Assembly (NCBI GenBank): GCA_951406725.2
Contig: OX597822.1
Span: forward strand, 23,746,001 to 23,810,000
Length of the DNA stretch: 64,000 bases
From: Octopus vulgaris
Taxonomy: Eukaryota
Direction of reading: 5' to 3'
Part shown: piece after piece, positions 1 through 37,690 of the stretch
Layout: each line of letters starts with the position of its first letter
Position numbering within the stretch: the stretch's first letter is position 1
Position numbers and translations under genes: made by a program
Notes under the pieces: generated by a model
Told to the model about the DNA's origin: nothing
The model's database searches: none
The model's input: only the letters and a program-made list of their open reading frames with translations

Positions 1-880
1 TAAAGGAAATTCTAAACATACATAAAATCATTAAAAGCTACAAACAACCTAATCACTTAAAAAGATTCTCACAATGGCAAAATTGTTTTCTGAAATTACG
101 GATGCAAAAGTAAAAAAAAATGTGGTAGACCAAACTGCGCAACATGCCCTAACCTTCTAGAAGGATCAGAATTCCTTTTCAAAGAGGGACAAAAATTCAA
201 GATCAGATCCAATTTTACTTGTGCTTCTGAAAACATAATTTATGTCATAAGGTGCTCGGGCTGCCACCAAAACTACTTGGGGTCCACGGGATTATCACTC
301 AGACGTAGATGCACACTGCATCGACAACAGATTGCATTCCCAGAATACAGAATGATACCCTTTAGTGAGCATATTGAGAAATGCGCAAAGCAACTACTAC
401 CACAATTTTCAATCTTTCCATTCTATCAATGTGCTATTGGAACACCAACACAAATTAGATTAAACAAGGAAACATTCTTCATTGAAAAATATAAGCCTGA
501 ATTTAACCATTCTAACAAAGAAACTCACCCCACTAAATAAGGGGAAAAGAAATATAAAGTGATTATCTCCCTTATACCGGAAGAAATCGCTTATTACCTC
601 CCCCGACCTGGAACTCTTCTTTGCACTGCATAACGAAGACATAATACGATCTAAATAAAGACATCTGAGAAAAATGAGAAATTTGAAAAGTTAACACGAA
701 ACCGGTAATTTCTTCAAAAACTATGTTACTGTATGAAAAAATTTTATAACATTCTTCTAACATAATGACTCAAATATATTCTTTAACCTTATAAAACAAG
801 CCTTCTGTAGTTTTTTCACTTTTTACTATATTCTATATATCCAACCATGTGCTTTCACACACCAACTTTCTCACCTATTT
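1..880 (+). mobile_element. Penelope-like element 3' end: Cys linker + GIY-YIG endonuclease (degenerate) and 3' pseudo-LTR, ending in (TA)n
   Basis: Frame from 121 reads CGRPNCATC...NFTCASENIIYVIRCSGCHQNYLGSTGLSLRRRCTLHRQQI...RLNKETFFIEKYKPEFN, a PLE GIY-YIG with a Neptune-type Cys linker. The 3' UTR recurs at ~19446-19620 and ~32528-32802. Confidence 0.9.
677..713 (+). ncRNA. Minimal type-I hammerhead ribozyme, U3:A8 core variant
   Basis: agaaat-TTGAAAA-gt taac ac-GAAA-CCGG-TA-atttct: 6-bp stem I, palindromic loop 3 and GUA triplet. Confidence 0.6.
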
Positions 881-1090
881 ATATATACATATATATATAT
901 ATATATATATACATATACATATATATATATATATATATATATATATATATATATATATATATATTTATATATACATATATACACACACACACACACACAC
1001 ACACACACACACACACACACACATATATATATATATATGTATATATATATTTGTATATATATGTATATATATATATAATATATATATATT
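878..1090. repeat. (TA)n/(CA)n compound microsatellite, representative of dozens across the window
   Basis: Direct reading; tracts like this generate the YIYI/HTHT pseudo-ORFs. Confidence 0.98.
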
Positions 1091-1363
1091 ATTGGCTAAA
1101 CTGGCAAAATGACCATTCCGAAATATAACAATATCTGTTTCAACACACGAGTTCACATAAAAAATCTTGCACAACAAATATTTAAACGTACTAATATATA
1201 TATATATATATAAACAACTTATAAATAAGGGTAAACGAAAAAATTTCCAATGCCAAATATGCTGAAAACTGGACATATTGTCCATTACCATATAATTTTT
1301 CACAATACGCACGCTACTCGAAAAAAAGCCGACAGAAATTTCTAAAAAATTCCATTATTACCA

Positions 1364-1416
1364 TATCGGACCGATTTCAGGGTTAGTTCGTGAGAACCCT
1401 CCCTTCGTCAGTGATA
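1364..1416 (-). ncRNA. Minimal hammerhead ribozyme in a PLE-derived segment (~1090-1673)
   Basis: Minus strand: tatca-CTGACGA-agggagggtt...aaccct-GAAA-TCGG-TC-cgata. The segment ends in a 30-bp inverted repeat at 1594-1623/1644-1673. Confidence 0.7.
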
Positions 1417-1674
1417 AATGTGCCAAAGAAATAAATGAGATACTTACTTATACTCATGAAGAAGCAAAACACTAAGTCATGAGCACAATTAGGTACCCCA
1501 AATACATCCAAAATAGAAATACTCCAGCCCATTCAAGACACGTGCGATTTGAACTGAGGCTCTCACAGAGTGAGAGAGTCCGGAAGTGAACACTTAAATT
1601 TATATTTAATGTAGGATAAAATCATATTAAAAAATACCTTTAAGATTTTATCCTACATTAAATATAAATTTAAA

Positions 1675-35185: not shown

Positions 35186-35752
35186 TAACAGAATGTCACC
35201 AATCTATGGGAAGGAAGTTTGCGTATAATGTGTACTTTGTGTATATACGATTTCGTTATTCAAATTTTCAAACAGACGTATTCTGATCTAATGCATATAG
35301 AGGAAGTTGTTTTTAGTAAAGCAGTTGACTGTTTCTGGTTTAGTTTCGAATTCAGAATTCTTATAAAGTATTATTCTTTTGCCGTTTGTAGTTGATCCTT
35401 TTCATCTTTCATTTTGTAAAAGGGGAATACTTTATATTTTTGATTAACTCAAATTTCTGGATGTTTACTATATGCAATTTTTCAAAGAGACGAGTCTTTA
35501 ACTTGATGTTTATGCGCGTTTATATGGCTGGTTTGTTTTGTCCTTGTCTCCCCAATGTAATCCTCGTTGCATTCTGAGAATGTGATGCAGCAGATAAGAT
35601 TTTCGCTTTGCAACTCGTGCTTCACATTCATTTTCAATTTCTTTTCAATTTTCAATTCCTTGAAAAGTTTGCACAACGAAAGCGCTTACACATAATTGAC
35701 ACACTATACGCAAACTTCTTCATCAAACGTCTGCAACATTCTATTATTTAAA
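35186..35752 (-). mobile_element. Old PLE GIY-YIG fragment bounded by ~60-bp imperfect inverted repeats
   Basis: SENLICCITFSECNEDYIGET...INAHKHQVKD; arms ~35186-35242 and ~35688-35750. Confidence 0.7.
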
Positions 35753-35883
35753 TAAGCTTTTAAAAATAACTCTTTCTATAGATATTGTGATTGTATAAAG
35801 TGACTTTTACAAAAGTTGTGCCCCAGCATGGCCGCGGCCTTCGGGCTAAAACATTTTAAAGGATTTAAGGATATATATATCAA

Positions 35884-36783
35884 CTAGCTGACGTATCTAG
35901 TATTTCCCGGAAAAGAGGGGCTTGTCCGTTGGCTCCGTTCTCATAAGTGTTTCACTAATCCAATAGCAACAATACAAAGTATATAGCCCTTAAAACGGTT
36001 TTTGTGCATTTACAGAAAATACCGAATGTCTTACGTAGAATCTTGTTTTAGGAAACCTCAATAAGTTATGAATACTCAAATCGTGAAGTCAGTTACATAA
36101 TAACATGAAATTAGTTACTCGATAGCAAAAATTCAGATAAAGTAGCCCCGAAAAGGGCTTTAATGCGTTCCCAGAATATATAGAACTTAGGAGGAAATAC
36201 TAATAAGGTATGTATACTAAAATCATGAAGCATGTTACGTAATAACAGGCTAATCAGATAGGAGATAATAACAATTCAAAGTAAATAACTCTGAAAAGGG
36301 CTTTTGTGCGTTCCCAGAGAATAGAATCCTTAGGGGCGCTAGTGTTGAAATAGATTTACAGTGAATGTAGAAACAGACTGACGTTAAGTTTTACAGTAGG
36401 CATAAAAATGAATTTGCATATAGATTTAAAAATAAAATATGATGTAGATTATCAATACATTTACAATACTTACAAATATTACAGTTCAATAATAAATACC
36501 TGACGATTTGGTGAATCAAGTTTGTAGAGCTTCTTGATAAACAACTTTTTTGGTCTTTCCTTGTGGGGCATGAATAAGCAAATGATTAGGATTTCTGACT
36601 CTTGATCATCCCACATAAAGTTGGCCATGGGAGAATACTGGTTCCGCAAAGTCCAGACCTACCACATCAAAGGACTGCCCCTAGGCCTTGTTAATACTCA
36701 TTGCAAAGCTCAGTTTCAAAGGGAATTGCAGGCACTTGTACTGGAAAGGCATATCTGAGGTAACAAGTGGAAATCTAGGAATT
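35884..36783 (-). mobile_element. Helitron 3' portion: Pif1-like helicase C-terminus, ~150-bp subrepeats, CTAG end
   Basis: [60 protein letters not shown]...TKKVVYQEAL; terminus ...acgtcagCTAGt at 35884. Confidence 0.92.
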
Positions 36784-36982
36784 ATATATATATATTTATG
36801 TATATGCATATATATGCATATATATGTATATGCATATATATATGTATGTATGTATGTATGCATGTATGTATGTGTGTGTATATATATATATATATATATA
36901 TATATATATATATATATATATATATATATATACATATATATATATATATATATATATATATATATATATATATATGTATATA

Positions 36983-37690
36983 TAACAAAAGTTGAGTTGT
37001 GGGGTATCGCACGAGTGGAATTATATACGAAAGAAGGTTTGAAAATGCAATTTAAAAGATGTTTATTTACTTTACCGGTTTCACTCTTTGGAAAAAGATT
37101 GTCAAAAGTAACATGTGGAAGTTTGGTTGCGTTAATTATTGGTTGTTGCAAATTGCTACATTACATATATATATATACAGTCTTTGGTGACAGGGACATG
37201 TTAAGGACATAAAAAAGTTCAACAAGTTCCTTAAAATATTGGGCAAAAAAGATTACATAAATAATCGTTCTCAAGGACATACTTAAGATAGTTTCCAGAA
37301 GGAATTGATATTGGTACTGTATCTGTATATTCAAACATGCACAGAATATTGGTTGACACAGAGTACTATAATCCATATAAATATACAGTCTTTGGTGACA
37401 ACAGTATGTTGAGAATATAAAGAGGTTTAACAAGCTCCTTGAGAACGATTATTTATGTAATCTTTTTTGCCCAATATTTTAAGGAACTTGTTGAACTTTT
37501 TTATGTCCTTAACATGTCCCTGTTACCAAAGACTGTATATATATATATGTAATGTAGCAATTTGCAACAACCAATAATTAACGCAACCAAACTTCCACAT
37601 GTTACTTTTGACAATCTTTTTCCAAAGAGTGAAACCGGTAAAGTAAATAAACATCTTTTAAATTGCAGTTTCAAACCTTCTTTCGTATAT
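36983..37690 (-). mobile_element. Non-autonomous PLE derivative with ~255-bp inverted arms (37023-37277/37436-37690) and a tail, in (TA)n
   Basis: Near-identical arms, each carrying a hammerhead variant (37067-37111 on minus, 37602-37646 on plus). Confidence 0.85.
37602..37646 (+). ncRNA. Hammerhead ribozyme, U3:A8 core variant
   Basis: ttactt-TTGACAA-tctttttccaaagagt-GAAA-CCGG-TA-aagtaa; identical copy on the minus strand at 37067-37111. Confidence 0.65.

Follow-up and report, generated by a model that had tools for sequence, protein, structure and literature searches.

A 64,000-base stretch of contig OX597822.1 of Octopus vulgaris (hereafter the window; genome size 2.8 Gb) contains four small hammerhead-like RNA motifs in which core positions 3 and 8 are U and A in place of C and G. 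They are located in the 3' ends of Penelope-like elements of two families, A and B (Table 1), and U3:A8 is the ordinary, majority form of this motif class in the genome. We regard it as probable that the motifs are minimal type I hammerheads of Penelope-like terminal repeats, in which U3:A8 is an inherited consensus that likely keeps the 3-8 tertiary pair, and that tandem transcripts of intact elements would self-cut slowly as dimers.

The cores had been located by an original prediction made from the letters of the window, and each was confirmed on re-reading: TTGAAAA in the 683 and 32610 motifs, TTGACAA in the 37608 motif, and the reverse complement of the latter in the 37105 motif. A structural pattern (core.TGA..A, stem II of at least 2 bp, GAAA, a palindromic or hairpin stem III, UH, and stem I of at least 4 bp) was scanned along both strands of all 64,000 bases. 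Six sites matched: the U3A8 motifs, four in all, and on the reverse strand two of C3G8 type (29623 and 1411). They had no chance equivalent: 30 block-wise doublet shuffles of the window gave at most 0.03 matches per window in every 3/8 class, and the 4-nt palindrome was absent from the shuffle matches. All four motifs contain U3-A8, G5, A6, A9, GAAA and GUA or GUU (core NUGANNA with 3 and 8 paired), and all exhibit type I topology, with stems I of 7, 4, 6 and 6 bp around the core and cut site. The 683 and 37608 motifs are predicted to be cut after positions 707 and 37640, respectively. Stem II of the 683 motif is 2 bp long; family A begins this stem with G10.1-C11.1 and has no extra nucleotide between A9 and 10.1. 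Both family-B motifs begin it with a U10.1-U11.1 mismatch, a reported active exception, and the U following A9 stands opposite a U. The predicted retention of stem I, GAAA, CCGG and a GUH triplet thus holds for all four motifs, but stem I of the 32610 motif has only 4 contiguous pairs, the family-B mismatch had gone unmentioned, and the CCGG, which had been called a loop, makes more sense as part of a palindrome, A-CCGG-U. This palindrome would serve as a minimal stem III in all four motifs, and two motif copies pair through it in cofolding. No match to a curated Rfam hammerhead model, which together with loop 1-loop 2 contacts would mark a canonical tertiary-stabilised hammerhead, was obtained: none occurred among the 150 listed of 247 window matches, and none at the gathering score in loci L212, L108 and L246. 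This null was not counted against the motifs because it is expected for minimal forms.

Family consensus counts distinguish an inherited U3:A8 from decay. Patterns with positions 3 and 8 free and flanks fixed matched family A 265 times and family B 577 times. Among the first 100 listed matches of each, family A gave 97 U3A8 and 3 U3G8, and family B gave 98 U3A8, 1 U3U8 and 1 U3G8; C3 was present in 0 of the 200. Because flank-fixed patterns could miss a diverged C3G8 subfamily, a further family, F, was checked at 18 loci picked by protein only. Of these, 16 carried UUGAAAA; the sequence of one locus broke off upstream of the anchor, and another locus lacked it. Positions 3 and 8 were fixed and N7 and N17 variable. 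In contigs from four public runs, each labelled as a different organism (contigs cannot show RNA ends), family B had no listed change at 3 or 8, with N17 varying among A, C and U, and no change at 3 or 8 was present among the rows listed for family A.

Genome-wide counts were made with the core followed by 6-22 free bases and GAAACCGGT, each class with a reversed control. In this CCGG class, U3A8 gave 11,723 matches (reversed control 108), C3G8 205 (42), C3A8 332 (57) and U3G8 431 (94). These are matches and not insertions, since inverted arms and tandem units are counted twice and a few are in the wrong register, and the U3A8 to C3G8 ratio is valid for the CCGG class only; C3G8 motifs with other stems III are present in the window. 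A CGCG class gave 1,449 matches (control 5); among the first 100 listed, 99 were U3A8 and 1 was C3A8, nearly all of them from a tandem repeat, 362 bp long, whose stems are canonical. Twenty-three of 100 listed C3A8 matches came from a repeat without stem I; these were not treated as hammerheads. A reading in which the window copies are CUGANGA motifs that decayed through separate C>T and G>A changes, or chance matches in AT-rich DNA, could appeal to the AT-rich genome, to both changes being transitions, and to monomer folding energies no better than those of shuffles (z 0.25 to 0.51, a measure rejected as uninformative). It is refuted by the absence of C3 from the listed family matches and by the reversed-control count, and the window shuffles also speak against it; we give it almost no chance. 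The predicted covariation, as opposed to decay, is instead supported, both by the U3A8 consensus, where no CTGANGA consensus with independent decay was found, and by covariation of 3 and 8 across families (below). The description of U3-A8 as rare in nature is not supported: it is the majority form here and has been published for Penelope elements. The warning about standard CTGANGA searches was well placed, as a CUGANGA-only search would lose ∼98% of the CCGG-class motifs of this genome (205 versus 11,723).

The assignment to Penelope-like elements was borne out by the position of the motifs downstream of reverse transcriptase (RT) and GIY-YIG frames. Families A and B are endonuclease-containing Penelope-like elements with RT followed by a C-terminal GIY-YIG domain. 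Upstream of the 683 motif, RT in locus L071 (RVT_1, E 6.7e-6) runs on into the window, and in many family-A loci the motif is preceded by matches 77-97% identical to the endonuclease frame at 94..540. The motif follows the endonuclease frame by ∼145 nt in family A and by ∼1 kb in the family-B locus L073. None of 30 family-B loci had a coding match within 1.5 kb upstream of the motif, a gap explained by a long untranslated end; coding sequence was found through the upstream DNA of other copies, and copies outside the window, such as L073 and L183, have RT and GIY-YIG frames ∼1 kb before the motif. RVT_1 scores above the cut-off in the 775-amino acid (aa) frame of L184 (GIY-YIG, E 0.019) and in L183, where the endonuclease is in the next frame; L227 has both domains in tandem units. 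In young tandem elements whose 784-aa RT/GIY-YIG frames are intact, the U3A8 motif occurs once per 4.4-kb unit. Insertions typical of Penelope elements were found: the inverted arms at 37022-37691, opposite-strand pairs, the L227 tandem units, 5' truncation and (TA)n flanks. The 37105 and 37608 motifs count as one event because a single inverted insertion holds both, one in each of its arms, which are 98% complementary. Microsatellites swamped the first repeat search, and masked self-BLAST was used instead. In the family-A copy at 1..873 the RT and endonuclease frames are mutually offset, indicating a broken copy; the four window copies, being truncated or broken, are probably inert passengers.

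Thirteen representatives across families were compared for covariation; they were hand-picked and related, so the figures are descriptive only. Structure cells were paired in 91.7%, compared with 55.9% in shuffles and 29-44% with partners slid, and each of the five stem I pairs shows changes in both partners. Positions 3 and 8 are U-A in 8, C-G in 3, U-G in 1 and unpaired C-A in 1, and G5, A6, A9, GAAA and U16.1 are invariant in 13 of 13. At the protein level, A, B and F share 48-59% identity among themselves and 39-46% with family C, which is C3-G8 (one frameshift-degraded row, at 43-45% and 35%, is left out of these ranges). The protein tree, with one outgroup, is no test of monophyly, and only its distances were used. 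The simplest reading of these relationships is a single swap to U3:A8, in an ancestor shared by A, B and F. The original prediction had taken the second family as independent support, implying convergent compensation in A and B. Stems I and II of the two families indeed have no common sequence, and the swap can recur, being present in Schistosoma and also here among close tandem-repeat relatives (L108, C3G8, versus L191, U3A8; 81% identical). We nevertheless consider separate origins in A and B very unlikely, since A, B and F are about equally related, all are U3A8 with the same CCGG palindrome, and a C3G8 family did not turn up among them. By itself, recurrence in two families therefore counts for little as evidence, as related families fit one ancestral swap.

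We infer the course of cleavage from what is described for similar hammerheads in PMC4209133 and in the review PMC6765202. Tandem transcripts of intact elements would bring two motifs together via A-CCGG-U, and stem III would form between two molecules through the palindrome. Slow cleavage of the dimer 3' of N17 would then trim precursor transcripts at the terminal repeat, and the protein of the element may assist. Minimal hammerheads of Penelope elements are reported to have low, dimer-dependent activity (PMC4209133), and natural U3-A8 and U10.1-U11.1 variants, with in vitro activity of 3/8 covariants, are described in PMC3088659.

Several observations weigh against self-cutting, in addition to the limits of the covariation set and protein tree. 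U3 can pair with the common A17 and close the cut site, as in the minimum-energy fold of 674-716, an analogue of the C3-G17 trap described in PMC3884650. Family A has a stem II of only 2 bp, and family B is without G10.1-C11.1. For a type III hammerhead, deep mutational scanning is reported to have given rescue only by G3:C8 (PMC9901934), and PMC11167929 reports that ribozyme mutants had no effect on insertion in vitro and that cleavage needed protein. Within the genome, 55 of the first 100 listed U3G8 matches belong to one subfamily of the A clade, with copies 98.8-99.2% identical, one of which has an intact 775-aa RT/GIY-YIG frame. Among the first 100 listed of the 1,123 matches to this clade, 17 have G8 with a base lost at the 17/1.1 junction, 1 has G8 with the junction intact, 41 have A8 with the loss and 41 have A8 intact. 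The one-base loss is thus present in 58 of 100 listed matches, yet these copies were amplified, and an intact ribozyme may be dispensable. A single lineage in which the junction deletion came first and G8 later is not supported, as a 10-copy tree places a sister with an intact junction beside the G8 clade and an A8 deleted copy elsewhere.

Other core variants have also multiplied. A tandem C3-A8 subfamily of a 360-bp repeat, with intact stems, accounts for 11 of the first 100 listed C3A8 matches. It may have begun by deamination, its G8 site being a CpG. Its copies are 84-85% identical to the U3A8 copy and the C3G8 units 81%, an order that would suit a mismatch intermediate of the swap, though on very few comparisons. 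In the window, the core CCGAAGA (U4C with C3-G8 kept) marks a third Penelope-like family with a U-U start to stem II and a GTAC palindrome. This core is the family consensus (1,168 matches, 96 of the first 100 listed exact), and the family has tandem 4,271-bp units with intact frames; a literature search for U4C in Penelope elements, which lacked most subscription papers, returned nothing specific. The proposed check that single mutants at 3 and 8 should be depleted gave a divided answer: they are scarce, but amplified U3-G8 and C3-A8 subfamilies exist.

These amplified subfamilies, together with the junction deletions and the young U4C family, would be accommodated if a hammerhead-derived structure had been kept for another job, such as protein binding, an RT start site or 3' end definition, with U3:A8 forms cleaving little or not at all. 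The dispensability of cleavage in vitro (PMC11167929) and the proliferation of Naiad elements without canonical hammerheads, as described in PMC8557442, point the same way. Against such a role stand the invariance of G5, A6, A9, GAAA and U16.1 across the 13 representatives, the pairing of 3 and 8 in 12 of them, the restriction of position 17 to A, C or U in almost every family consensus observed, and U3A8 in the 362-bp tandem family with canonical stems; we judge it unlikely, preferring slow self-cutting as dimers. We tentatively propose, as a possibility that we hold at less than even, that the recently amplified elements form a natural allelic series, with U3:A8 dominant in Penelope-like elements and retrozyme-like tandem repeats alike, alongside C3:G8, C3-A8, U3-G8 and U4C families and a young autonomous subfamily lacking a base at the cut site. 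If the young subfamily cannot cleave, it would be genomic evidence for Penelope retrotransposition in vivo without ribozyme cutting, and the mismatch families would be captured intermediates of the compensatory swap. Such recently amplified natural variants are a ready panel for asking whether these elements need ribozyme cleavage.

Both U3:A8 and its link to Penelope elements are already in print, so the original claim by itself matters little, and the window motifs are a new example of a known thing. Cercyon Penelope-like elements of Schistosoma mansoni have U3-A8 hammerheads with ∼1,300 matches (Cervera and De la Peña, 2014; PMC4209133), and the supplement of that paper lists UUGAAAA and UUGAUAA cores and motifs without an extra base after A9. 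The Cercyon motifs resemble those here in the core swap, the location in RT/GIY-YIG terminal repeats, the palindromic stem III, the short stem I, and the occurrence of solo and opposite-strand copies. They differ in proportion, with ∼1,300 U3-A8 beside ∼2,000 C3-G8 in Schistosoma whereas U3A8 exceeds C3G8 ∼57 to 1 here within the CCGG class, and in structure: family A has a 2-bp stem II without the extra base between A9 and 10.1, which is common but not universal in the 2014 set; family B has the U-U start; and stem III is a 4-nt palindrome. The natural core variants of Perreault et al. (2011; PMC3088659) share the U3/A8 covariation, stems II of 1-2 bp, the U10.1-U11.1 mismatch and weak stems III, but the section on them neither ties them to Penelope-like elements nor gives counts of thousands per genome. 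Small dimer-cleaving Penelope hammerheads (Lunse, Weinberg and Breaker, RNA Biol, as cited in PMC6765202) are alike in type I form, short palindromic stem III and dimer cleavage. A literature search that lacked most subscription papers returned no report on octopus or its host group.

The genome also contains retrozyme-like tandem repeats. The 362-bp repeat has a canonical 6-bp stem I, a 4-bp stem II, GUC and a U3:A8 core. The 360-bp family exists in three forms that share one stem II: C3G8, C3A8 and a diverged U3A8. Its C3G8 form is 81% identical over ∼220 bases to the U3A8 copy. These ∼360-bp type I tandem repeats, one family C3G8 and one U3A8, resemble animal non-LTR (long terminal repeat) retrozymes (PMC7229834; bioRxiv 10.64898/2026.07.22.740005), whereas the window motifs are in autonomous-type RT/GIY-YIG elements and not in short tandem units. 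No U3A8 retrozyme family was found in the literature searched, which lacked most subscription papers.

Table 1. Coordinates of hammerhead motifs, host elements and repeats (window positions, or loci where an L number is given; ORF, open reading frame)
Feature	Position	Strand	Description
Family-A hammerhead motif, type I minimal	676..714	+	Stem I 676-682/708-714, core UUGAAAA 683-689, stem II 690-697, GAAA 698-701, palindrome CCGG, GUA
Family-A hammerhead motif	32606..32638	+	Core UUGAAAA 32610-32616, GUU, 4 contiguous stem I pairs only
Family-B hammerhead motif	37602..37646	+	Stem I 37602-37607/37641-37646, core UUGACAA 37608-37614, U-U-opened stem II, GAAA 37631-37634, CCGG, GUA
Family-B hammerhead motif, mirror copy	37067..37111	-	Core 37105-37099
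Family-A Penelope-like element, 3' end	1..873	+	Ends at (TA)n tract; RT just upstream of window
GIY-YIG endonuclease frame, family-A copy	94..540	+	ORF; Pfam GIY-YIG E 0.0065, below curated cut-off
Family-A 3' end, 5'-truncated	32529..32799	+	84% identical to 593-873
Truncated family-B insertion, inverted arm	37022..37286	-	98% complementary to 37427-37691
Truncated family-B insertion, direct arm	37427..37691	+	3' untranslated end only
Young family-A U3-G8 subfamily, one base missing at cut-site junction	L184, L185, L186, L173, L180		Intact 775-aa frame in L184
U4C-family element	41771-45656		Core CCGAAGA at 45415-45421 (+) and 42012-42006 (-)
Upstream ORF and RT/GIY-YIG frame	L227 9274-7937 and 7997-5646; L245 8988-7627 and 7717-5393	-	Also L183, L185, L186
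362-bp retrozyme-like repeat	L207-L226; L193 3220 and 3583	-	CGCG class
360-bp retrozyme-like family	L105-L129, L200, L191, L189		C3G8/C3A8/U3A8 forms
∼240-bp repeat	6939-7104, 12116-12355, 24397-24624, 39163-39397, 50682-50920, 58007-58541, 59339-59576		Masked self-BLAST

Three canonical CUGANGA motifs are also located in the window. The motif at 29623 (-) has a CCTAGG palindrome and lies downstream of RT fragments at 31810-32313, that at 1411 (-) has a 6-bp stem I, and one at 21493 (+), which fails the strict scan, follows a GIY-YIG-like frame at 20049-20963. Family-A and family-B 3' end fragments, both short, lie next to each other at 19446-19820, each cut short ahead of the hammerhead or inside it. 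In full-length elements of families F and C, an upstream ORF of ∼410-430 aa, counted from the first Met, overlaps the RT/GIY-YIG frame. This ORF has no Pfam match in either family and is 27% identical between them. Both families also have a T-TTT-TTA/T slippery site, in phase, at which a -1 frameshift is predicted, and in families A and B the RT frame comes after a comparable run of T. A figure legend in PMC8557442 describes a frameshift-separated ORF1 in some Penelope-like types.

Elsewhere in the window, the ∼240-bp interspersed repeat is abundant, with copies 85-93% identical and tandem partial copies at 58007-58541. A 293-aa frame at 53321-54202 (-) we take to be a fragment resembling a Helitron Rep/helicase, and a 317-aa frame at 1814-2767 (+) presumably resembles the RT/C-terminal part of an RTE-type LINE (long interspersed nuclear element). 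The 368-aa frame at 59780-60886 (+) is repetitive and Ala/Val-rich, with GCT-type triplet repeats and a 54-bp periodicity. A perfect 219-bp inverted repeat is formed by 23264-23482 and 23843-24061, separated by a 360-bp spacer.

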